A stretch of DNA of 64,000 nucleotides from Minisyncoccota bacterium. GTDB taxonomy: Bacteria; Patescibacteriota; Minisyncoccia; UBA6257; 2-01-FULL-56-20. How positions within the stretch are numbered: the first letter of the stretch is position 1; each line of letters starts with the position of its first letter. The notes beneath the pieces are model-generated. The model had not been told where the DNA came from. It was given only the letters and a program-made list of their open reading frames with translations, and did no database searches. The stretch lies in assembly GCA_022843285.1 (NCBI GenBank), contig JALHNY010000001.1:15128-79127 (forward strand). Direction: 5' to 3'. The position numbers and the translations under genes were made by a program. Positions 18 to 63,444 of this stretch are shown piece after piece.

Positions 18-5234
<5,217 letters not shown>

Positions 5235-5274: not shown

Positions 5275-5676
5275 ATGGAATCAGCAACCCGTCCCTACGA
5301 GATTTCCTTCCTCGTCCGCAGCGAGGGGGACGTCCCCGCCGTCGCCGCGCTCCTCGCCGAGCACGGCGCTCAGGTGACCGACGAGGGTCAGGTCCGCAAG
5401 CTCGCGCTCGCGTACCCGGTGAAGAAGGTAACCGAAGGCTACTTCGGCTACCTGGTTGCCACGATGGACGCCGAGTCTGCCAAGAAGCTCGAGAACTCGG
5501 CCCGCACCACACCCCAGGTGCTCCGCCTGCTCGTCCTCACCAGCAAGCCCGCCAAGGCTCCGAAGCCGGCAGCGGTGAAGCGCGCCGCCCGTCGCGAGCA
5601 GCGCGCCGCAGCTCCCGCGGCGGTCTCCAACGAGGATCTCGCCAAGGAGCTCGAGAAGCTCACGGCGGGGACCTAG
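5275..5676 (+). CDS. rpsF: 30S ribosomal protein S6
   Basis: N-terminal YEIxFLV pattern and length typical of S6; followed by ssb as in the conserved rpsF-ssb arrangement. Confidence 0.75.
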   Translation: MESATRPYEISFLVRSEGDVPAVAALLAEHGAQVTDEGQVRKLALAYPVKKVTEGYFGYLVATMDAESAKKLENSARTTPQVLRLLVLTSKPAKAPKPAAVKRAARREQRAAAPAAVSNEDLAKELEKLTAGT

Positions 5677-5742
5677 TCCCTGTTCCCCCTGGGGAGCGGG
5701 TGCTAGGATACGCCCGTACCAACCGGTCCCACTCTCACACCC

Positions 5743-6219
5743 ATGAACCTCAACCGCGTCATCATTGCAGGCCGCCTCACCGCGGATCCCCAGCTCCGCT
5801 CCACCACCTCCGGGCAGTCCGTAGGCACGTTCGGCGTGGCTACCAGCCGCACCTGGACGGACAAGAACAGCCAGAAGCAGGAGCAGACCGAGTTCCACAA
5901 CGTGGTGGTTTGGGGTCGCCAGGCTGAGCTCTGCGCCCAGTTCCTGAAGAAGGGCGGCCTGGTGCTCATCGAGGGGCGCCTCCAGACTCGCGCCTGGGAG
6001 GACCAGCAGGGGGGCAAGCGCAAGACCACGGAAATCATCGCCGAGGCGGTCCAGTTCGGCCCCCGCCAGGACGGCGGCGCGGGCGGCTCGTGGTCCGGCG
6101 GCGCCAAGCCGGCGGCCGCAGCCACCGCCACCGCAGCGGCACCGTTCAGCGACCCCAACGACATCCCGATCATCAACCTGGACGAGGACGAGGCCATGAC
6201 CTCGGAAATCCCGTTCTAA
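5743..6219 (+). CDS. ssb: single-stranded DNA-binding protein
   Basis: OB-fold N-terminus (RVIIAGRLTADP), glycine-rich linker, and the acidic C-terminal tip ending DIPF. Confidence 0.85.
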   Translation: MNLNRVIIAGRLTADPQLRSTTSGQSVGTFGVATSRTWTDKNSQKQEQTEFHNVVVWGRQAELCAQFLKKGGLVLIEGRLQTRAWEDQQGGKRKTTEIIAEAVQFGPRQDGGAGGSWSGGAKPAAAATATAAAPFSDPNDIPIINLDEDEAMTSEIPF

Positions 6220-6259
6220 CGTTGCATTTCTGAGACCCCTCAGTTAGACTCCCTCGGCA

Positions 6260-6685
6260 ATGGCTAAACCCATCATGACCGTCGTGACCATCCAGGCAGA
6301 TGCCGGGAAGGCAAACCCCGCACCGCCCTGGGGTACCGTTTTTGGTCCTAAGGGCATCAACATCGCCGAGCTGTGCAAGCAGTACAACGAGGCGACCAAG
6401 GACAAGATGGGGCAGATCATCCCGGCTGTCGTGACCATCTACGAGGACCGCAGCTTCGACTTCGTCCTCAAGAGCGCCCCCGCCTCTGACATGCTCCGCA
6501 AGGCAGCTGGGGTGGAAAAGGGCTCGGGCGAGCCCCACAAGAAGAAGGTGGGCAAGGTTTCCAAGGAGGCGATCAACAAGATTGCCGAGGACAAGATGGC
6601 CGACCTCAACGCGTACGACGTTGACCAGGCTGCCCGCATCGTTGCCGGCACCGCCCGCTCCATGGGCATCACGGTAGAGGAGTAG
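6260..6685 (+). CDS. rplK: 50S ribosomal protein L11
   Basis: 141 aa with strong similarity to L11 (AGKANPAPP, GTARSMGI), and the C-terminus matches. Confidence 0.9.
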   Translation: MAKPIMTVVTIQADAGKANPAPPWGTVFGPKGINIAELCKQYNEATKDKMGQIIPAVVTIYEDRSFDFVLKSAPASDMLRKAAGVEKGSGEPHKKKVGKVSKEAINKIAEDKMADLNAYDVDQAARIVAGTARSMGITVEE

Positions 6686-13826: not shown

Positions 13827-13954
13827 TTTTTAAGTAGCTCCTGAATTTGAAATTTGTCGCCGGGGCGACAGCCCGCCGAAGATACGGCACCCGCGATTTT
13901 CGCGCAAGACCCCGGCACGCAGAGAGGGCCACCGATTGTTCGGTGGCCCTCTCT

Positions 13955-14277
13955 GGGCGGCGTCCTGGTAAGCGGGATTCTGTCGCCAGTGGCGGACAGC
14001 AATCTATCTGGGATCGCGGTCACCCGCGACCTCTAGCGGCACTCCAGCACGAGGCTGGCTCGGCCTTGCACCCGGTAAGGGTTTAGCCGTTTCACCCCGG
14101 CGGTCTCCCGCCGGACTACCCCCGAGGGGGTCCGGTCCATTTCTGGACGCGGCGTCTCTGCTCGCACCTCTCGCGTTGCCGCGGCGGGCCGTTAGCCCGT
14201 ACCTTTTTGACTTAGAAACTAAGTGGGTGTCCCGACTTTCCTCTGGGCAAGCCCAGCTGCTGTCTCGGACGCCGCAG
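13955..14277 (-). ncRNA. rnpB: RNase P RNA (bacterial type, reduced ~320 nt)
   Basis: On the minus strand: P4 5' strand AGAGGAAAGTCGGGAC, GGGGTGAAACGG, and the 3' P4 strand CGACAGAATCCCGCTTAC. P1 pairs GCGGCGTCC with GGACGCCGC. Confidence 0.8.
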
Positions 14278-14291
14278 GGGCAGTGTGCCAG

Positions 14292-14795
14292 CTAGTTATC
14301 CGTATCGCCAGCCTTGTCGTCCCGGAGCGCGTGGTTGCTGAGCCCGGTCGCGCGGAGGAGGTATATGGCGAGCGCCATGACGACCGCCGAGACCGTGGCG
14401 AGCTGCCACATGCCCAGTCCCGCGAGGATGCCGACCGCTGCCGTCGCCCAGATGAGCGCCGCGCTCGTGAGGCCGAGGACGTGGTGATTGTTCTTGAGGA
14501 TGATGCCTCCGCCGATGAAGCCGATGCCCACGATGATGTTGGCGATAATGTTGAAGAGCGCGCCGCTGTCACGGAGGATCGGCTCGGCGTACCCGCCGCC
14601 GGCTACGAAGGTAAAGGGGACCGCGAGCGCGATCAGGGTGAAGAGGCAGGCGCCTCCCGCCACGAGCATCGACGTCTTCACGCCGGCGTCCTTGTGGATG
14701 ATTTCTCGCTCCAGGCCCATCACGATGCCCAGCGCGAGGGCCACGAAGAACCGGGCGAGCATTTGCGAGAGGGGGAGCATTTCCATAGACTGCAT
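14292..14795 (-). CDS. mgtC: MgtC/SapB family membrane protein
   Basis: Only the C-terminal 167 aa of the long minus ORF are real: ALALGIVMGLEREIIHK..AGVKT motif with 4-5 TM helices. The upstream part is antisense to aspS. Confidence 0.7.
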   Translation of the reverse strand: MQSMEMLPLSQMLARFFVALALGIVMGLEREIIHKDAGVKTSMLVAGGACLFTLIALAVPFTFVAGGGYAEPILRDSGALFNIIANIIVGIGFIGGGIILKNNHHVLGLTSAALIWATAAVGILAGLGMWQLATVSAVVMALAIYLLRATGLSNHALRDDKAGDTDN

Positions 14796-14807
14796 TGTAC
14801 CAGAGCC

Positions 14808-16193
14808 ATGCGCACCTACGTAAACGAAGCCCCGAAGAAGGTCGGCGAGACGGTCACCCTGATGGGCTGGGTGGACTCCCGCCGCGACCACGGCAAGGTC
14901 ACCTTCATCGACCTCCGCGACGTGAGCGGAACGGTGCAGGCGGTCGTGACCCCCGAGATCCCCGGTGCCGATGACCTGCGTGCCGAGTGCGCGGTCGAGG
15001 TGGAGGGTCTCGTGAAAGCCCGCCCCGAGAAGCTCGTCAACGACAAGATGCCCGACGGGCTCGGCACGATTGAGATCGAGGTTCGGGGTGCGAAGCTCCT
15101 GGGCGCCGCCGAGGTGCTCCCGATCGCCGTCACGACCGACGGCACGGAGATCGGCGAGGAGGTTCGCATGAAGTACCGATACCTCGACCTGCGCCGCCCG
15201 CGGCTGCAGCGCAACCTGCGCGTGCGGCACCGCGTCATTGCCGCCATTCGCCGCTACCTCGACGAGCGCGGCTTCGTGGAGGTCGAGACCCCGAACCTCA
15301 CGAACCCGACGCCCGAGGGCGCCCGCGACTACCTCGTGCCGAGCCGGCTGCAGCCGGGCTCCTTCTACGCGCTCCCGCAGTCTCCCCAGCAGTTCAAGCA
15401 GCTGCTGATGGTCGCGGGCGTCGAGAAGTACTTCCAGATTGCGCGCTGCTTCCGCGACGAGGACACGCGCGGTGACCGCCAGGCTGAGTTCACGCAGCTG
15501 GACCTCGAGATGAGTTTCGTGGAGCAGGAGGACGTGATTGCGCTCAACGAGGCGCTCCTCATCGACCTCGTGGAGAAGAACTTCCCGGAGAAGAAAATTC
15601 AGGAGATTCCGTTCCCGCGCATCACGTACGCCGATGCCGTGGCGCAGTACGGCTCGGACCGCCCGGACCTCAGGAAAGACACCTCCGACCCGAACCTGCT
15701 CGCGTTCTGCTGGGTCATCGACTTCCCGTTCTTCGAGAAGAACAGGGAGGGTGGGTGGACCTTCACGCACAACCCGTTCTCGGCGGCGCAGCCGCAGCAC
15801 GAGCAGAACCTGATGAACGGCTCCGACGTTGCGGACATTCTCGCCGCACAGTACGACATCGTGCTCAACGGGTACGAGATTGGCGGCGGCAGCATCCGCA
15901 ACCACAAGCCGGAGGCGCTCCGCGCGGCTCTGAAGATCATGGGCTACGACGAGGAGCGCACCGAGCGCGGCTTCGGCCACATGCTCGAGGCGCTCAGCTA
16001 CGGCGCACCCCCGCACGGCGGCATCGCCTGGGGTCTGGATCGCCTCGTGATGCTCCTGCTGGGCGAGCCGAACATCCGCGAGGTCATGGCGTTCCCGAAG
16101 ACGGGGGACGGCCGCGACCTGATGGCGGGCGCCCCGGTGCCGGTCTCGAAGGAGCAGCTCGACGAGCTGCGGATCAAGATCATCGAGAAGTAG
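14808..16193 (+). CDS. aspS: aspartyl-tRNA synthetase, short archaeal/Thermus-AspRS2 type (461 aa, no GAD insertion), likely non-discriminating
   Basis: Start MRTYVNE..VTLMGWV. Motifs FYALPQSPQQFKQLLMV and QIARCFRDED are present. The length excludes the bacterial-type insertion domain. Confidence 0.9.
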   Translation: MRTYVNEAPKKVGETVTLMGWVDSRRDHGKVTFIDLRDVSGTVQAVVTPEIPGADDLRAECAVEVEGLVKARPEKLVNDKMPDGLGTIEIEVRGAKLLGAAEVLPIAVTTDGTEIGEEVRMKYRYLDLRRPRLQRNLRVRHRVIAAIRRYLDERGFVEVETPNLTNPTPEGARDYLVPSRLQPGSFYALPQSPQQFKQLLMVAGVEKYFQIARCFRDEDTRGDRQAEFTQLDLEMSFVEQEDVIALNEALLIDLVEKNFPEKKIQEIPFPRITYADAVAQYGSDRPDLRKDTSDPNLLAFCWVIDFPFFEKNREGGWTFTHNPFSAAQPQHEQNLMNGSDVADILAAQYDIVLNGYEIGGGSIRNHKPEALRAALKIMGYDEERTERGFGHMLEALSYGAPPHGGIAWGLDRLVMLLLGEPNIREVMAFPKTGDGRDLMAGAPVPVSKEQLDELRIKIIEK

Positions 16194-17217: not shown

Positions 17218-17250
17218 AGAAAAGGGCGACCGCAGCGGTCGCCCTTTTCG
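17218..17250. terminator. bidirectional intrinsic terminator between Nudix gene (+) and release-factor gene (-)
   Basis: AAAGGGCGACCG-cagc-GGTCGCCCTTTT. Confidence 0.7.
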
Positions 17251-17982
17251 TTACTCCTTGAAGCTCTCGCGCATCACCGCGCCAATCTTCTCGAAGTCTC
17301 CCCCGAGAATCTTTTCGAGGTTGCTCCACTTCTTGCCGATGCGGTGGTCCGTGATGCGGTCATCGGGGAAGTTGTACGTGCGGATTTTCTCGGAGCGATC
17401 TCCGGTGCCCACCTTGGACTTGCGCTCCGCGCCGATTGCCGCCGCCTCTTTTGCAATTTGCTCCTCGTAGAGCTTCGCGCGGAGGACGTCCATGGCGCGC
17501 TCGCGGTTGGCAGCCTGGCTGCGCTCGACGCGCGATGCCACGACGGTGCCGCTGGGCTTGTGGAGAATGCGCACGGCCGTCTCCACCTTGTTCACGTTCT
17601 GCCCGCCGGGTCCGCCCGCGCGCGAGAAGGTGACCTCGAGGTCGCGGTCGTTGATGACCACCTCCTGCGGTGGCACGACCGGCATGACCGCCACGGTCGC
17701 GGTGGAGGTGTGGATGCGGCCGGAGCGCTCCGTCTTGGGGACGCGCTGCACGCGGTGCACGCCGCTCTCGTGCTGGAGCGAGTCCCACGCACCCTCGCCG
17801 CTGATCTCAATGACGATGCTCTTGTACCCGCCGAGGTCGTTCTCCGAGGCATCGACGACGGTGAAGCGCCAGTTTTTTGCCACCGCGTACTGGCGGTACA
17901 TCTCGGTGAGGTTCGCCGCGAAGAGGGCGGCCTCGTCGCCACCCACGCCCGCCCGGATTTCCATGATCAGCTTCTTTCCCAT
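17251..17982 (-). CDS. prfA: class-I peptide chain release factor, RF1-like (PKT tripeptide, GGQ), lacking N-terminal domain 1 (~244 aa)
   Basis: Aligns to E. coli RF1 from about residue 107 onward ([14 protein letters not shown].., [35 protein letters not shown]). There is no room or coding signal for domain 1 upstream. Confidence 0.8.
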
Positions 17983-18054
17983 AGGGCTACATCGTACGGG
18001 GAGCCTGGCTCCTGGACAAGCTTTACAGGAGAAAATCGTGTACAATAGGTAATC

Positions 18055-18486
18055 ATGTCCAAGCGAATTCTCGTTGTGGATGACGAGCCGGACTTCCGGG
18101 AGATATTTTCTACCCATTTGAGAATGAAGGGCTTTGACGTGGATACCGCGGACGGGGCTGAGAACGCGCTAGCGAAGATCAGAGCTTCTGCCCCCGACCT
18201 GGTGCTCATGGACGTGCAAATGCCTCCCGGGAAGACCGGCATCGAGGCATTTTTTGAGCTCAAAAACGATCCGCAGACCGCGAACGTCCCCGTAATGTTT
18301 CTCACTAACCTCGGCGCCACCGAGGTGGAGGCCCAGCAGATCAACGTGCAGTACGCGCAGGAGCTCGGGGCGGTCGGCGTGCTCAAGAAGACGGACGACC
18401 TCAAGAGCCTGAGTGAGGCAATAGCTAAGCAGTTCGGCGGGGGAGTCGCACCGGCTACCTCAGTGGAGGTACCCCCAGCGCCGTAG
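18055..18486 (+). CDS. single-domain response regulator receiver (CheY-like)
   Basis: [13 protein letters not shown] .. LVLMDVQMP .. K box; no output domain. Confidence 0.8.
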
Positions 18487-24200: not shown

Positions 24201-24452
24201 TTACTCCTCGGTCTTCTTGGCGCGTGCCTTCTTTTCCTTCTTCTCAGCCGGTGCCGCAGCCTGGCGGGAGCGGAAGCGCTCCACGCGGCCTGCCGTGTCG
24301 ATGAGCTTCTGCTCACCGGTGAAGTACGGGTGGCACTTCGAGCAGATTTCGACGTTGTACGACTCCTGGGTTCCGCCCACGACGAAGGTGGCGCCGCAGC
24401 CGCAGGTGACGGTCGCCGAGGGGTGGTACGTGGGGTGGATTTCTGCCTTCAT
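24201..24452 (-). CDS. rpmE: 50S ribosomal protein L31
   Basis: MKAEIHPTY..CGCG..CSKCHPYFTGEQK; Lys/Ala-rich tail. Confidence 0.9.
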   Translation of the reverse strand: MKAEIHPTYHPSATVTCGCGATFVVGGTQESYNVEICSKCHPYFTGEQKLIDTAGRVERFRSRQAAAPAEKKEKKARAKKTEE

Positions 24453-24511: not shown

Positions 24512-24818
24512 CCGTTCTGCACTCTGCCTGCAAGTGAATCCGGCCCCTGGCTGGCACGGACTGGCGGAGCGGTCCTTGAAAGTGCGACATAAGATAGTAA
24601 TCCACCGGAGCACACTGATAGTGCTCCAAACAAAAAAGCTTAGTAGTTGTCTCAATAGCGTCTGACTCCCTGTAACGGGGCGTACGGCGTTAAACAAAAA
24701 CAACTACTCAAAATAAACCTGTTTATTTGAGTGACCCAACGGAGGATGAGCTCTACGCGTACGAACCTCGACCGCGCAAGCGGAGACAAGTACCACGCGA
24801 TACCTTATTTTTCTTTTA

Positions 24819-26412
<1,594 letters not shown>

Positions 26413-43806: not shown

Positions 43807-44142
43807 ATGCAGACGACCTTCCGCTACACGCACATTGACCACTCCGACGCCCTCGAGGAGCACGCCACCAGTAAGCTCGCCTCGGTGGCCCACCTCATTC
43901 CCGCCTACGAGAGAGACGGCGAGGCTCGCGCGGAGGTCGAGTTCGAGCGGACCACCGAGCACCACAAGAGCGGCGACATCTTCAAGGTGCGGGTCCGCCT
44001 CCACCTGCCGGTGGCCACGCTCGAGGCGGACGCGGTGGGGGACGACATCTACGCCACGGTGGATCGGGCGCGGGACACCCTCCACGGCAACGTCCAGCGC
44101 TTCAAGGAGCAGGACGTTGCGCGCCGCCACGCCGAGGAATAA
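43807..44142 (+). CDS. hpf: ribosome hibernation promoting factor (short HPF/RaiA)
   Basis: 111 aa with sigma-54 modulation-protein family spacing; the conserved hpf-secA neighbourhood. Confidence 0.8.
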   Translation: MQTTFRYTHIDHSDALEEHATSKLASVAHLIPAYERDGEARAEVEFERTTEHHKSGDIFKVRVRLHLPVATLEADAVGDDIYATVDRARDTLHGNVQRFKEQDVARRHAEE

Positions 44143-44178
44143 GCTCACCCGGCTACCCAGCCGGAAACAACCAACCAC

Positions 44179-46761
44179 GTGATTTCACTATTCAAGAACT
44201 TTTTTGACCGCCGCGCCCTGAGCGAGTACCAGAGGCGCCTCTCCGCCATCGCCGACTTTGAGCCCGAGCTCATGGAGCTCCCGGACGAGAAGCTCACCGA
44301 GTGGAGCCTCGCCCTCCAGGCGAAGATTCAGGGGGGTGAGCTGGACCTCGACGGGGCCATGCCCGAAGCCTTCGCCCTGGCCCGCGAGGCTGCGCGCCGC
44401 ACCCTCGGCCAGCGCCCCTACGACGTCCAGCTGATCGGCGGGCAGGTGCTCCACCGGGGCGCCATTGCCGAGATGGGCACCGGAGAGGGCAAGACCCTCG
44501 CCGGCGTCGCCCCCGCGTACCTCAACGCCCTCACCGGCAAGGGCGTGCACATCGTCACCGTCAACGAGTACCTGGCCCGCCGTGACGCGGTCTGGATGGG
44601 GCAGGTGTACAAGCTGCTCGGGCTGAGCGTCGCCGTGCTCGTCCCGAACGCCGCCTTCCAGTACGACGCCGACTTCAAGGGAGAGGAGGAGGTGGACGAG
44701 GAGCGCGACGCGACTGGGGCCTTCAAGGTGAAGCAGGAGTTCCTCCGCCCGGTCTCGCGTCGTGAAGCCTACGCCGCTGACGTCACCTACGGCACGAACC
44801 ACGAGTTCGGCTTCGACTACCTGCGGGACAACCTCACGTACGATCCGGCGCAGCAGGCCCAGCGCCCGCACTACTTCGCCATCATCGACGAGGCGGACAG
44901 CATCCTCATCGACGAGGCGAGGACGCCGCTCATCATCTCGGCTCCGGATCGCGAGAGCAGCGACCTGTACAAGTCCTTCGCGGTTCTCGCGCGCCGCCTC
45001 GAGGTGGAGCGCCACTACACCTTCGACGAGAAGCACCACTCCGTCACCGTGCTGCCGGAGGGCATAGAGGAGGTGGAGCGCAGCCTCGGCATCGCGAACC
45101 TGTACGCTCCCGAGAACATTCGCCTGGTCCGCTTCCTCGACGAGGCGCTCAAGGCCGAGTCCCTCTTCAGGAAGGACAAGGAGTACGTCGTCCGCGACGG
45201 CGAGATCATCATCGTGGACCAGTTCACGGGGCGCATGCTCCACGGGCGCCGCTACAACGGCGGGCTGCACCAGGCCATCGAGGCGAAGGAGGGCGTGAAC
45301 GTCCGCGAGGAGAACCGCACGTACGCGAAGGTCTCCGTGCAGAACTACTTCCGCCTGTACGAGAAAATCTCCGGCATGACCGGCACCGCCGAGACCTCAG
45401 CGGAGGAGTTCCACAAGGTGTACCAGCTGCCGGTGGTGAGCATCCCGCCGCACCGCCCGCTCCGGCGCGTTGACATGCCCGACGTCATCTACAAGGACTC
45501 TGAGGCCAAGTACCGCGCCATCGTGAAGGCGGTGCGCGAGCGCCACGAGGCGGGCCAGCCGGTCCTCATCGGCACGACCTCCATTGAGAAGAACGAGGTG
45601 CTCGCCGACTACCTCAAGCGCGCCGGCGTCCCGCACCAGGTCCTCAACGCGAAGAACAACGAGAAGGAGGGCGGCATCATCGCCCAGGCCGGGCGCCCGG
45701 GCGGCGTCACCGTCGCGACCAACATGGCCGGCCGCGGCGTCGACATCATCCTCGGCGGCAACCCGCCGGCCAAGGAGGACGCGGACGCCGTCCGCGCCGC
45801 GGGTGGCCTGCACGTCATCGGCACCGAGCGCCACGAGGCGCGCCGCATCGACAACCAGCTCCGCGGGCGCGCCGGCCGCCAGGGCGACCCGGGCTCCTCG
45901 CAGTTCTTCCTCAGCCTCGACGACGACCTCATGCGCATCTTCGGCGGGGACCGCCTCAAGAGCATCATGGGGACCCTCATGGCGCAGCTCCCGGAGGACG
46001 AGCCCATCCAGATGAAGATGGTCTCCCGATCCATCGCCGAGGCCCAGGCCAAGGTGGAGGGGAACTACTTCGACACCCGCAAGCACCTGCTCGAGTACGA
46101 CGACGTGCTCAACAAGCAGCGCACCGCCGTGTACAGGAAGCGCCAGCAGCTCCTCGAGGCTGTCACCCCGGAGCTCGTGGCCGCCGAGGTCTCCTCGGCA
46201 GCGCGCGAGTACCTGGACGGCGTCCTCGGCAAGAACGGCGTCGTGCCGGACGGCGGCGAGCCCCTCGAGGAGCTCCGGCAGCTGTTCGCCGAGGCGGGCA
46301 TCACCGACGCGGCGCACCCGTGGCCCGGCGACCACCCGAGCGCCGGCGACCTCGCCGAGCTCCTCGAGCACCGCGCGAAGGATGCGGCCCTGGATCCGGA
46401 CACGCGCCGCCGCCTGCTCTCCATCCTGGACCAGCTCTGGATGGCGCACCTCGAGGACCTCGAGGACCTCAACGACTCCGTGCGGCTCCGCGGCTACGCG
46501 CAGCGCGACCCGCTCATCGAGTACCGCCGCGAGGCGAGCGAGTTCTACGAGCGCCTCTGGGTCGCGTACGCCGAGTGGGTGTTCATGAACGCCGTGAAGG
46601 CGGCGCGCCCGGCAGACGGCACCCGGCCGGTCGCCACCCCGGTGATGCCGGCGCAGCCCGTAGCCGCGACGCCGCGCGACGCGCGCTTCGAGAACGTCGG
46701 GCGCAACGATCCCTGCCCGTGCGGCAGCGGGAAGAAGTTCAAGAAGTGCCACGGGAAGTAG
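44179..46761 (+). CDS. secA: preprotein translocase ATPase SecA
   Basis: DEAD-like motor motifs, and the C-terminal zinc finger CPCGSGKKFKKCHG. Confidence 0.95.
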   Translation: MISLFKNFFDRRALSEYQRRLSAIADFEPELMELPDEKLTEWSLALQAKIQGGELDLDGAMPEAFALAREAARRTLGQRPYDVQLIGGQVLHRGAIAEMGTGEGKTLAGVAPAYLNALTGKGVHIVTVNEYLARRDAVWMGQVYKLLGLSVAVLVPNAAFQYDADFKGEEEVDEERDATGAFKVKQEFLRPVSRREAYAADVTYGTNHEFGFDYLRDNLTYDPAQQAQRPHYFAIIDEADSILIDEARTPLIISAPDRESSDLYKSFAVLARRLEVERHYTFDEKHHSVTVLPEGIEEVERSLGIANLYAPENIRLVRFLDEALKAESLFRKDKEYVVRDGEIIIVDQFTGRMLHGRRYNGGLHQAIEAKEGVNVREENRTYAKVSVQNYFRLYEKISGMTGTAETSAEEFHKVYQLPVVSIPPHRPLRRVDMPDVIYKDSEAKYRAIVKAVRERHEAGQPVLIGTTSIEKNEVLADYLKRAGVPHQVLNAKNNEKEGGIIAQAGRPGGVTVATNMAGRGVDIILGGNPPAKEDADAVRAAGGLHVIGTERHEARRIDNQLRGRAGRQGDPGSSQFFLSLDDDLMRIFGGDRLKSIMGTLMAQLPEDEPIQMKMVSRSIAEAQAKVEGNYFDTRKHLLEYDDVLNKQRTAVYRKRQQLLEAVTPELVAAEVSSAAREYLDGVLGKNGVVPDGGEPLEELRQLFAEAGITDAAHPWPGDHPSAGDLAELLEHRAKDAALDPDTRRRLLSILDQLWMAHLEDLEDLNDSVRLRGYAQRDPLIEYRREASEFYERLWVAYAEWVFMNAVKAARPADGTRPVATPVMPAQPVAATPRDARFENVGRNDPCPCGSGKKFKKCHGK

Positions 46762-59706: not shown

Positions 59707-62700
59707 ATGAAGAGAGCACAATCTATGGACGTTCTAAAACCTTCCATTCAAATAAAACCTCTAAGGTTCTCCGAGAACCCAGCTGATTACGCTCTCTATC
59801 GGGCGGCTTTGGAGTGGGATTTGATCGATCCTATTGTTATCGAGAGTCCGGAAGATCTGAAATCCACGCGGTCATGGGCCGACAAGGTTCAACCTTATCA
59901 GCATCAAGTATCAAACCTCATAAGTTTTTGTCGCCGCTTGCCTGTAACGCTTCTCGCAGATGATGTTGGTCTAGGCAAGACCATTAGTGCAGGATTGGTT
60001 GCCAGTGAATTAATTTCTCGGGGTCGTCTGTCAAAAATCCTCATAGTTGCGCCAAAGATACTCGGTCCTCAATGGCAGGAAGAGTTGGAAACGAAATTCG
60101 GAATACCTTCAATCATTGCGACTGGAAAGGGTCTACTGGATGCAGAACCGCCTGGTGATATAGGTGCCGTCATAACTACCTATAATTCCGCGCGAATGTA
60201 TCTGACTCGACTCCGAGATGCGGGGTTCGACATGTTGATACTCGACGAAGCCCACAAGCTCAGAAACTTGTATGGTACTGATACTGCGCCCCAAGTAGCT
60301 TTGCGTTTCAAAGAGATTTTGGCCGATCGAGTTTTTAAGTACGTTCTTCTTCTTACTGCTACCCCGATTCAAAATAGACTTTGGGATTTATATTCGCTTG
60401 TTGAACTTCTTACGGTTGCACGTGGCCACGAGAATCCGTTCGGCAATCCAGGCACGTTTTCAAGAAAGTTTATCGCCGACAATCGGACAGATGCGCGCAA
60501 GCTCAATACGGAAGCGCAAGAAGAGTTTCGTTCGATTATTTATGGCTACATGTCTCGAGTGCGACGTGGAGACGCAGATCTGCATTTCCCAGGAAGAGAA
60601 GTTCAACTTCACTCAGTAAATCCTTCCCCGGGTGAATTGGAGTTGATTAAGGTTGTTGCCACGTATATTGGAGATTTGGATAGGCTTACTCAGATAAATA
60701 TCCTGAAGACTTTGGTCAGTAGCCCTGAGGCACTCACTATCATGCTTAAAGGGATGGCCGAACGGGGAACGGTAAAGAAGGAATTTGCCGTTGCAGTAAA
60801 GGAGGTTGCCAAGACGATCTCGCTCACATCAAAGTTGCAGGGCCTGGAAACGTTAGTCGACAAACTAAGGGCAGAAAAACCGACCCAGTGGCGCATGGTC
60901 GTTTTTACGACACGGATTGAGACACAAACTTCAATTCAGAATTTCTTGGAAGAACGAGGCATTAGTTGTGGACTCATAAACGGCACGACCGGCTCCACGA
61001 ATAAAGATACTCTTGAGAAGTTCCGGAAAGATGACCCAGAAATCAACGTAATGATATCTACGGAAGCCGGAGCAGAAGGCGTCAACTTGCAGGTTGCAAA
61101 TGTCTTGGTCAACTACGACTTGCCTTGGAATCCGATGATTGTTGAGCAACGTATTGGTCGCGTACAACGTCTCGGCTCGGTTCATGAAAAAGTGTGCATC
61201 TTCAATATCGTCCTCAAGGATACATTTGAGGACTATATCGTTGGTCGCTTGATGGAGAAATTGCAAATGGCTTCGCATGCTATCGGCGATATCGAGTCGT
61301 TGCTTGAGGCCTCGGGACTTGGAGAAGGTGAAGATAGTTCGGAAGTATTTGAGCAAAAGGTACTCAAGCTTGTTCTCGCCTCATTGCAGGGCAAAGACAT
61401 TGGGGAAGCAGCCAAAAGAGCGGAGCGGAGCATTGAGAATGCAAAAATCCAACTGGAGAAGGAAGAGGAAAATATCAATTCCATGCTCGGGAGCATGGAT
61501 GAATCCTATGACACAGGTCCCCAAAGTCCGATACTTCCAAAGGTTATCCGATCTATGGATGTTAAGGATTTCGTATTGTCTGGACTCAAGAGTTTGGGTG
61601 CAACACTGACACAAAAAACGCCTGAATTTTACCTCTCGGAACTCAACAAAAAGCAGGAGCTAATACGCTTCGACAATAATCTCAGCATTCCCGTCGCAGA
61701 TGGTCCTTTACTTAGAAACGTTCTGTATGCGCCGGGCAGCCCAGCTTTTGAGAGATTGGTAAGTAAGGTAACGAACGTTGGTCTGCACCGTGTTGAGGAC
61801 GCTGATGCTAATCCGAAAGACAAGCTTGAGGCAATAGTGAAAGAATGGGTGGATAAAACAGGAGCGTCTTATCTTGGCTCAAAGATAACAGGTGTTCGAC
61901 GCACGTTCAGCGGCGCGGCACTAGTAAGGGTACGAGTGACTGTGGCTCATGATAGTTATGAACGCCTCGTTGAAATTCCCTGCTCCCACTCGGAGCATAT
62001 AGGGGAATCAACAAAACTGGCCTTGGATCCTCTCGATAACACGATACTTAATGAGCCATCGCTTATCGGCATATCTCCCGAGTTGCTGATCGACAGAGCT
62101 CTCCTTGATGCTGGCGTGTCGGAATTCTGTCGCTTTTACAGAGAGCGATTGTCTCAGGAGTTGAAGAATGCTGGGTTGGATCCTGCAAAAAAGAAGAAGA
62201 TAGAAGACGACTTTACTCCTCGTCTTGAGTGCGCGTTGGTTGGTCTGGAGGGATTCGTCCGGCGTCAGTTTGAAACGAATGCATCTTACCGATTTGGCGA
62301 GAGCGATGAAAATAGCAGTGCTCTAGAAGTATTGCCTTCTCTAGGGGAGACAGTTTCTGCTCCTAAGTTGGCAAAATGTGAGGAGACTGGGAAATCGGTG
62401 CCTGTTGATTGCCTCGATCGCTGCGATATTAGTCGTAAGAGAGTTCTGCGTTATCTGCTTGTGAAATCGGATACCAGCGACCGGAAAGCGTTGCAGAAAT
62501 ACATAGTCAAGTGCGAATACACTGGAAAGCATGTACTGAATGATGAAGTGGAGAAATCCGATGTTACTGGCCATATGGTTCTGGCCATGATGCTAAAAGA
62601 GTCTGCTCTTAGTGGCAAGAAGGGCGAACCCGATGCGTTTGGAAAATGCGATTTCACAGGCGCGGAACTCCTGTTGAGTGAGCTGGGCGTTAGCCAAGTA

Positions 62701-63444
62701 TCAGGGAAAACGTATCGTCTGGACGAAGCGGGTACTTCTTCGGTGTCAGGGAAGACTGGACATCGCACAGAGTTTGTTAAGTGCGTGGAGACAAATTCTC
62801 TCATCTTGCCGGAAGAATCGGAAATATGCGAAGTAACTGGAAAGGTAGTTACTAAGGGACTGCTGGAAGAGTGTGAAATATCTGGCAAGAAGGTATTGCC
62901 TTCAAAGCTGGAAACAAGTTCTCTGAGCGGAAAGAAGGCGCTCAAAAAGTACTTCGTTTCCAGTAGCATCTCTGACGCAAGACTACTGAAGGAAGAAGCA
63001 ATCAAATCTGCAGCTGGAAAGTTCTGCTTGCCTGTCGAGGCAAAGGAATGCGCATGGAGTCACAGACTTTGCCATATCGATGATTTGAAGTTTTGTTCTC
63101 TCACCAATCTAGCCTTTTACTTTCAGTTTATAAAAGAGAAAGATGCCCAATCTCGGCTAGAGGTTTTGTCTGATCTTTTGGATGAAGTCCAGAGGGGTCT
63201 TGAGATCGAGGTGACTGAGAATATGCGCACTAACCTTGCATTCGCTATAAAGCATAAGACCTGTGAAGTTGAATCAAACAAATCTAATCCGGACAAGAAA
63301 ATCATCGCTATCTGCTTCTCTGGCAAGTCGTTCCTCGGATTGAGGACTAGACATTTTGGCGCGCTTTACTCGCTTGATGCGGAGACTGTCGTAGGCAAGA
63401 TTGCCGAAGGCAGCAGAAACACTAACGGCTGGACGCCGAACTAA
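59707..63444 (+). CDS. SNF2-family (SWI2/SNF2) helicase/ATPase with ~600-aa C-terminal extension containing ~10 tandem 15-aa repeats
   Basis: Motif I LADDVGLGKT, motif II DMLILDEAHKLRN, motif III LLLTATPIQNRL, motif VI QRIGRVQRLGS. GC about 46%. Confidence 0.85.
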   Translation: MKRAQSMDVLKPSIQIKPLRFSENPADYALYRAALEWDLIDPIVIESPEDLKSTRSWADKVQPYQHQVSNLISFCRRLPVTLLADDVGLGKTISAGLVASELISRGRLSKILIVAPKILGPQWQEELETKFGIPSIIATGKGLLDAEPPGDIGAVITTYNSARMYLTRLRDAGFDMLILDEAHKLRNLYGTDTAPQVALRFKEILADRVFKYVLLLTATPIQNRLWDLYSLVELLTVARGHENPFGNPGTFSRKFIADNRTDARKLNTEAQEEFRSIIYGYMSRVRRGDADLHFPGREVQLHSVNPSPGELELIKVVATYIGDLDRLTQINILKTLVSSPEALTIMLKGMAERGTVKKEFAVAVKEVAKTISLTSKLQGLETLVDKLRAEKPTQWRMVVFTTRIETQTSIQNFLEERGISCGLINGTTGSTNKDTLEKFRKDDPEINVMISTEAGAEGVNLQVANVLVNYDLPWNPMIVEQRIGRVQRLGSVHEKVCIFNIVLKDTFEDYIVGRLMEKLQMASHAIGDIESLLEASGLGEGEDSSEVFEQKVLKLVLASLQGKDIGEAAKRAERSIENAKIQLEKEEENINSMLGSMDESYDTGPQSPILPKVIRSMDVKDFVLSGLKSLGATLTQKTPEFYLSELNKKQELIRFDNNLSIPVADGPLLRNVLYAPGSPAFERLVSKVTNVGLHRVEDADANPKDKLEAIVKEWVDKTGASYLGSKITGVRRTFSGAALVRVRVTVAHDSYERLVEIPCSHSEHIGESTKLALDPLDNTILNEPSLIGISPELLIDRALLDAGVSEFCRFYRERLSQELKNAGLDPAKKKKIEDDFTPRLECALVGLEGFVRRQFETNASYRFGESDENSSALEVLPSLGETVSAPKLAKCEETGKSVPVDCLDRCDISRKRVLRYLLVKSDTSDRKALQKYIVKCEYTGKHVLNDEVEKSDVTGHMVLAMMLKESALSGKKGEPDAFGKCDFTGAELLLSELGVSQVSGKTYRLDEAGTSSVSGKTGHRTEFVKCVETNSLILPEESEICEVTGKVVTKGLLEECEISGKKVLPSKLETSSLSGKKALKKYFVSSSISDARLLKEEAIKSAAGKFCLPVEAKECAWSHRLCHIDDLKFCSLTNLAFYFQFIKEKDAQSRLEVLSDLLDEVQRGLEIEVTENMRTNLAFAIKHKTCEVESNKSNPDKKIIAICFSGKSFLGLRTRHFGALYSLDAETVVGKIAEGSRNTNGWTPN
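62371..63090 (+). repeat. in-frame tandem 45-nt (15-aa) repeat region inside the SNF2 gene; consensus [KS][CS][DE].[TS]GK.VL
   Basis: Units are KCEETGKSV, KCEYTGKHV, SDVTGHMV, ALSGKKG, KCDFTGAEL, QVSGKTY, SVSGKTG, KCVETNSLI, ICEVTGKVV, CEISGKKV, SLSGKKA, at about 45-nt spacing. Confidence 0.6.

Follow-up and report, generated by a model that had tools for sequence, protein, structure and literature searches.

Parcubacteria with a release factor 1 that lacks domain 1: a putative minimal termination factor

The release factor gene and its surroundings

Within the 64-kb stretch of DNA analysed here (the window), an open reading frame on the minus strand (17251..17982, -) encodes a protein of 243 aa that corresponds to domains 2, 3 and 4 of bacterial release factor 1 (RF1) according to ORF, Pfam, NCBIfam and PDB alignments. 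It starts with ATG (17982..17980, -), ends with TAA (17253..17251, -) and has a response regulator, a NUDIX gene and rpmE as its neighbours. Two bases past the stop codon, between the convergent NUDIX and RF1 genes, the terminator scan placed a candidate hairpin (17219..17249, -) with a 14-bp stem and 9 G-C pairs, which is a match to the terminator consensus only. On the other side the upstream space is bounded by a divergently transcribed single-domain response regulator (18055..18486, +; Pfam Response_reg, residues 5-123). The coordinates of the two divergent starts leave an intergenic stretch of 72 bp (17983..18054) as all the space upstream of the RF1 gene, and a consensus scan of these bases found no sigma-70-like promoter.

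The first-pass annotation of this DNA, made from the sequence alone, had described an RF1-like protein alignable from about residue 107 of RF1 onward, with the PKT and GGQ motifs and domain 4 in place. The alignments bear this out, as residues 5-232 of the protein correspond to residues 111-339 of E. coli RF1 and residues 3-235 to residues 86-318 of T. maritima RF1, with 46-48% identity to the solved RF1 structures. Both motifs can be read directly in the DNA: the RF1-type PxT 'peptide anticodon' P-K-T (residues 82-84; 17731..17739, -) as CCC AAG ACG and the catalytic GGQ (residues 126-128; 17599..17607, -) as GGC GGG CAG. The Pfam PCRF profile is matched in its C-terminal half (positions 100-194 of 194, on residues 3-97) and the RF-1/GGQ domain practically throughout (positions 4-116 of 116, on residues 107-214). 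The RVQRVP and IHTST segments are identical to those of T. thermophilus and E. coli RF1. An AF2 model of the protein has a mean pLDDT of 83.8 and a complete predicted fold, and superposes on domains 2-4 of ribosome-bound T. thermophilus and E. coli RF1 with a TM score of 0.93-0.94 and an rmsd of 1.8 A over 241 residues. Many deposited ribosome-bound RF1 chains themselves hold just ~250 residues, and several contain domains 2-4 only.

In order to assign the protein to a family we compared it with the NCBIfam models. Its top matches were the two RF1 equivalogs, which between them cover everything but domain 1: NF001859 (model positions 104-336 of 347) at 355.6 bits against a cut-off of 400 and TIGR00019 (model positions 112-342 of 361) at 339.7 bits against a cut-off of 423.25. 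Both cut-offs are missed because the first ~105 model positions, those of domain 1, have no counterpart in the protein; nothing in it matches positions 1-99 of the PCRF profile or positions 1-103 of the RF1 models. The scores against other class-I families fall well below their cut-offs, with 215 bits against 370 for RF2, 78.7 against 166.65 for PrfH and 48.8 against 100 for ArfB, the last confined to residues 106-140. The earlier exclusion of RF2, argued from a missing SPF motif and frameshift site, therefore stands (PKT where RF2 has SPF, RF2 model 215 bits versus 356 for RF1, and no CTT TGA site), as does that of ArfB, since the codon-recognition domain is present, and the comparison with PrfH that had been proposed also came out negative.

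The absence of domain 1 had likewise been claimed, together with a lack of room for it upstream, and both points hold: a domain-1 HMM finds no match, and 72 bp separate the gene from the response-regulator start. The maximal ORF does continue for a further 45 codons (17983..18117, -), which we regard as a non-coding 5' extension lying outside the gene. As had been noted at the outset, these codons are non-homologous and run into the 5' end of the response-regulator gene, whose coding sequence occupies 18055..18486 (+) and whose Response_reg match begins at residue 5. They match no release factor and have no counterpart in relatives. The first-pass annotation also had them overlap the promoter of the response-regulator gene, but the consensus scan turned up no sigma-70-like site in that place. 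Homologues of the RF1 gene begin 3-10 residues before a conserved I-x-E-I-R-A-G motif, in agreement with the start in the window, and the in-frame, stop-to-stop space upstream of this motif amounts to just 1-32 codons in nine of ten related loci. The product of 17251..17982 (-) is confirmed as RF1 domains 2-4 without domain 1, with PKT and GGQ intact.

Relatives and apparent graded loss of domain 1

Relatives were taken as the best 120 matches, in clusters at 90% identity, among 5.8 billion proteins. At 64-100% identity to the window protein, 118 of these 120 are 238-256 aa long, the two exceptions having 270 and 290 aa. They stem from NCBI, JGI, ENA and Logan assemblies, some on contigs of 0.15-0.7 Mb. 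The named ones, from Patescibacteria, Liptonbacteria, Brennerbacteria and Paceibacterota, go under one of two labels, 'peptide chain release factor 1' and 'PCRF domain-containing protein'. A search of representative proteins gave no information on architecture, since its matches mixed fragments and mis-assembled duplicates (P0123, P0124) with full-length proteins.

Among 57 aligned clade members residues P82, T84, G126, G127 and Q128 are invariant, as are the PxT loop, the GGQ loop, the RIHTST segment and a further segment of 12 residues, and of the columns conserved among full-length RF1s just three differ in the truncated clade. Judging from these alignments the truncated RF1 is under purifying selection, and is neither an artefact nor a pseudogene. 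We also considered whether extra positive charge might compensate for the lost domain. The charge of the core is +4.6 in the truncated RF1s and -1.2 in RF1s from outside the candidate phyla radiation (CPR), yet it is +5.4 in CPR RF1s that retain half of domain 1. Because these are equally basic, a basic core is a CPR trait and no correlate of the truncation, and the idea was rejected.

With a view to placing the truncation in a phylogeny we scanned one genome per GTDB species and retained the 80 best RF1 loci, a pattern-limited set reaching down to ~52% identity. At each locus the gene was rebuilt and its upstream translation scored with a domain-1 HMM made from full-length genes, and the common RF1 core was used for a single neighbour-joining tree without support values. 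In this tree the window gene and ten loci (L001-L010) group as a single clade within the CPR RF1s, no member of which gives a domain-1 match, so that the truncation is common to the relatives, a point the first-pass annotation had left to be checked. The clade carries the public-record labels Liptonbacteria, Jorgensenbacteria or Brennerbacteria (Parcubacteria). Its sister group comprises 17 further Parcubacteria loci, 13 of which match only positions ~52-117 of the 117 in the profile and have N-terminal extensions of ~73-80 residues. The domain-1 HMM finds no match in the remaining four (L024, with ~48 residues, L048, with ~20, L042 and L049). Deeper CPR branches (L011, L013, L046) and the 50 non-CPR loci match positions 4-117, a complete domain 1.

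Across these lineages the size of domain 1 thus takes values of about 105, 75, 48, 20 and 0 residues. With none of the domain in the truncated clade, its C-terminal half in the sisters and the whole in deeper CPR branches, domain 1 appears, from the sequences compared, to have been eroded in steps. The closest full relatives, the half-domain Parcubacteria RF1s (for example RAAC4_OD1_1, locus L021, ~322 aa), share the rpmE-prfA gene order and the basic core with the truncated proteins and differ in keeping ~73-80 N-terminal residues that match the domain-1 profile at ~52-117 of 117.

Two loci labelled Nomurabacteria (L024 and L048) lie inside the half-domain Parcubacteria group and have an N-terminus shortened further, to ~48 and ~20 residues respectively. 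This suggests that domain 1 may have been lost more than once.

Orthology, stop codons and competing explanations

In the window the gene for ribosomal protein L31, rpmE (24201..24452, -; Pfam Ribosomal_L31), is found on the same strand 6.2 kb upstream of the RF1 gene, the two being separated by a block of genes for signalling and transport. Elsewhere this linkage is tighter: rpmE is immediately upstream of RF1 and in the same orientation in 18 of the 23 CPR loci examined, among them four truncated loci (L004, L007, L008 and L010) as well as half- and full-domain CPR loci, and in L007 and L008 the gap between rpmE and the RF1 core is just ~100-140 bp. One truncated locus (L001) shares the aspS-ndk-NUDIX neighbours with the window. 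The linkage of prfA with prmC was not seen, as no methyltransferase was evident just downstream of RF1 in 12 CPR loci by NPPY motif and N-terminal sequence. As the truncated gene occupies the ancestral rpmE-prfA position, it is most likely, on its sequence and setting, the prfA orthologue rather than PrfH, ArfB or RF2. We put the probability that the window gene is the housekeeping prfA and encodes a functional RF1 from which evolution has removed domain 1 at roughly 80%.

The alternative that survives best, although we consider it improbable, is that the truncated protein is an extra, PrfH-like or rescue-type paralogue, with a full-length RF1 encoded elsewhere carrying out routine termination. 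The known class-I release factor relatives that lack domain 1, namely PrfH, ArfB and the mitochondrial mtRF-R, are all specialised paralogues, and the DNA in view amounts to 64 kb of a genome of roughly 0.8 Mb. PrfH (RF-H), which is linked to RtcB2 and is described in PMC1586002, resembles the window protein in lacking domain 1, in keeping GGQ and in its similar size (~200 aa). It is, in contrast, an additional paralogue with altered decoding motifs and invariably has an RtcB-family gene upstream as its partner, whereas the window protein has the RF1 decoding residues, and no RtcB-type partner adjoins the RF1 gene in the window or in the loci examined. ArfB (YaeJ)/ICT1 and mtRF-R (C12orf65) also combine a GGQ domain with the absence of domain 1, but they have no codon-recognition domain 2/4, reach into the empty mRNA channel with a C-terminal tail and match only residues ~103-180 of the window protein. 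The bit scores (356 for RF1, 79 for PrfH, 49 for ArfB) follow the same division. Against a paralogue stand also the ancestral rpmE-prfA position and the place of the gene among the CPR RF1s, where it is sister to half-domain RF1s, as would be expected of an orthologue in progressive loss. As weak evidence in the same direction, the assemblies of L001-L010 contributed no second locus to the 80 best pattern-limited genome matches.

Domain 1 might instead persist as a separate small protein, encoded elsewhere and joining the 243-aa core in trans. According to PMC1586002 the domain forms a helical bundle of its own, structurally independent and flexible in solution. Since the sequence of domain 1 is poorly conserved, similarity searches could miss a copy standing by itself. 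We therefore searched all six frames with eight domain-1 queries, seven from CPR loci and one from E. coli. The 64-kb window returned noise only (best E-value 0.036), as did the surroundings, up to 10 kb on each side, of the truncated RF1 genes of 11 loci (L001-L010 and L048; best E-value 0.22). There is no conserved small ORF adjoining the gene, and the sister lineages show a domain that shrinks (about 105, 75, 48, 20 residues) and no fission. Such a split of RF1 we regard as quite unlikely.

Stop codons bear on what the truncated protein has to do. A count by hand from the window gene list, with four antisense-looking ORFs dropped, gave 17 TAG, 11 TAA and 14 TGA for ~42 credible genes. TAG can be read by RF1 alone and ends ~40% of these genes, which is difficult to square with a defective RF1, and as TGA is plainly a stop there must be an RF2 elsewhere in the genome. 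In genomes of the 64% G+C type TGA normally dominates among stops, and the TAG-rich usage seen here is unusual for such a genome.

The RF2 gene was not encountered in the regions searched. In the window a tblastn search with RF1 and 104 RF2 cores matched the 17251..17982 gene only, and no second release factor occurred in the 80 loci, which cover up to 10 kb on each side of RF1. In many other phyla prfB follows secA, hpf-secA-prfB being a common arrangement, and prfB follows secA in 13 of the 104 sampled RF2 loci. The hpf-secA pair (window 43807..46761, +) is kept in the lineage, and prfB does not follow secA in the window or in three relatives (L224, L225, L226), where it was also absent within 10 kb of hpf-secA.

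Searched with the RF2 motif SPFD-x4-RHTSF as a DNA pattern, metagenome contigs yielded 120 RF2 loci, none assignable to CPR, and viral contigs phage RF2s only. Domain 1 is complete in all ~100 of the metagenome RF2 genes with a 5' end within the contig, but as none is assignable to CPR they carry little weight for the lineage. One locus whose SecA is closest to that of the window (L120) was rejected as the RF2 of the lineage, as it belongs to Dormibacterota. Four others (L130, L166, L147 and L158) were rejected as CPR RF2 loci; from translated N-termini they lie with genes resembling those of amino-acid and cofactor biosynthesis and were judged non-CPR.

Three IMG/VR viral contigs of 57% G+C (L081, L091 and L102) carry a short RF2-like ORF, 221 codons from stop to stop, with SPFD..RRHTSF. 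It aligns with the release factor core over residues 3-101 only, and the GGQ domain is therefore possibly missing; these contigs may encode a class-I release factor relative without it.

That no RF2 was found in the window, at the 80 RF1 loci or at the three secA loci of relatives, while TGA is clearly in use, would also fit a truncated protein that serves as the sole class-I factor, broadened to UGA in an organism without RF2. We think this very unlikely because the decoding elements (PKT, RVQRVP, IHTST) are those of canonical RF1; the searches moreover covered a small part of any genome, and a missing RF2 hence means little. Finally, missed NCBIfam equivalog cut-offs and NCBI names of relatives that read just 'PCRF domain-containing protein' could point to a decaying, mis-assembled or mis-called prfA fragment, but the conservation data effectively refute this, with the same architecture in at least 118 of the best 120 90%-identity clusters from four assembly sources, catalytic and decoding residues all invariant, an intact ORF that begins at a conserved position and is followed by a terminator-like hairpin, and a complete predicted fold. 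Synteny, phylogeny and conservation are thus what disfavour a paralogue, a split RF1 and an artefact, and the canonical RF1 decoding residues what disfavour an omnipotent factor.

Predicted termination without domain 1, and other features of the window

Nearly all RF1 and RF2 proteins of bacteria and organelles have domain 1, and ideas about its role derive mainly from deletions in E. coli and from ribosome structures. Compared with canonical bacterial RF1 (PrfA; TIGR00019/NF001859), the window protein shares domains 2, 3 and 4, PxT, GGQ, the rpmE-prfA linkage seen in its relatives and a predicted reading of UAA and UAG; it differs in having none of domain 1, which measures ~105 residues in E. 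coli and ~85 in T. maritima. Taking the gene as prfA, the best reading of the sequence is that this putative minimal RF1 would terminate at UAA/UAG while touching neither the L11 stalk nor RF3. In the decoding centre domains 2/4 would recognise UAA and UAG by means of the canonical PxT loop (PKT) and the residues that partner it, domain 3 would position GGQ in the peptidyl-transferase centre so that peptidyl-tRNA is hydrolysed, and the factor would then leave the ribosome without the contacts that domain 1 makes to the L11 stalk and RF3. Peptide release at UAA/UAG is predicted from the intact motifs, the signs of purifying selection and the use of TAG. The loss is lineage-wide, complete in one Parcubacteria clade, with sisters lacking the N-terminal ~50 residues and deeper CPR branches unaffected.

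Engineered E. coli release factors offer the nearest comparison. RF1 and RF2 constructs without domain 1 (Mora, Zavialov, Ehrenberg & Buckingham 2003, related in PMC1586002) have the same deletion boundary as the window protein and keep codon specificity and release, the behaviour that we predict for it. By that account E. coli RF1 without domain 1 retained its codon specificity and in-vitro release and was functional in vivo, and lost only its response to and stimulation by RF3 (Mora et al. 2003 via PMC1586002). The constructs were made in the laboratory and lost RF3 stimulation in a host that has RF3, whereas the deletion in the window protein is natural, fixed in a clade and under purifying selection. 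RF3 itself is described in PMC1586002 as non-essential and absent from small genomes. By analogy, the deletion of the E. coli construct may have become fixed in this lineage, which would fit a streamlined termination apparatus without RF3-driven recycling. We infer that the truncated protein is active and is the only RF1 present, that organisms of the truncated clade lack RF3 or have no need of it and that recycling in them is spontaneous. On the whole it is likely that a species-rich Parcubacteria lineage terminates at UAA/UAG with a domain-1-free RF1 of two-thirds the usual size, as the end point of stepwise erosion.

L11 is the usual ribosomal contact of release factor domain 1. In the window its gene, rplK (6260..6685, +), is full length, with Pfam Ribosomal_L11_N matched at 1-58 of 58 and Ribosomal_L11 at 1-69 of 69, and as the N-terminal domain of L11 is kept there is no sign of co-degeneration of the stalk. 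A referee comment in PMC1586002 states that RF1 is inactive on E. coli ribosomes lacking L11, so that loss of the domain contacting L11 is not obviously neutral.

A full-text literature search turned up no account of an RF1 without domain 1 in CPR/Patescibacteria, and a review of release-factor evolution mentions CPR in a figure legend only. We are dealing with a known kind of protein, RF1, in a new natural form, and with a natural clade that repeats a domain-1 deletion previously known from experiments in E. coli alone. If the proposed reading is true, termination in these organisms runs without any class-I factor contacting the L11 stalk or RF3, and the clade is a natural system in which to ask what purpose domain 1 and RF3-driven recycling serve; should the RF2 of the clade also prove truncated, bacterial termination in the lineage would be entirely domain-1-free. 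The clade and its relatives at intermediate stages would offer comparative data on RF3 coupling, stalk docking and dissociation rate, and a further example of simplified translation machinery in the ultra-small CPR bacteria. More practically, genes falling below the RF1 equivalog cut-offs and now labelled just 'PCRF domain-containing protein' could be annotated correctly, and a compact, naturally optimised RF1 could serve in vitro translation and genetic-code engineering.

Several other features of the window deserve mention. A protein of the SNF2/helicase family with 1245 aa (59707..63444, +), which has no Pfam match in its C-terminal ~750 residues, was missed by the high-GC3 filter (>0.70) that caught other genes. 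This suggests a different codon composition, and the gene may be an acquired island. A class A RNase P RNA (112 bits; 13953..14275, -) is situated immediately upstream of aspS; it is overlapped by the mechanically called ORF 14223..16193, and the real start of aspS therefore lies further downstream. A complete 16S rRNA gene (1364 bits; 24814..26390, +) is isolated, with rpmE on one side and a response-regulator gene on the other, and with no 23S or 5S rRNA gene in the 64-kb window the rRNA genes are unlinked.

The rplK gene follows rpsF and ssb (5275..6685, +), a position usually held by rpsR, and lies outside any nusG-rplK-rplA cluster. At the edge of the window an ORF of 1738 aa (18..5234, +), which runs off the window start, holds rpoB and rpoC fused, with Pfam Rpb2 domains 6-7 ending at residue 496 and Rpb1 domain 1 beginning at residue 508. 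Fusions of beta and beta' are known from Helicobacter and Wolbachia, and the ORF is a candidate for a fusion of that kind or else the product of a sequencing frameshift.
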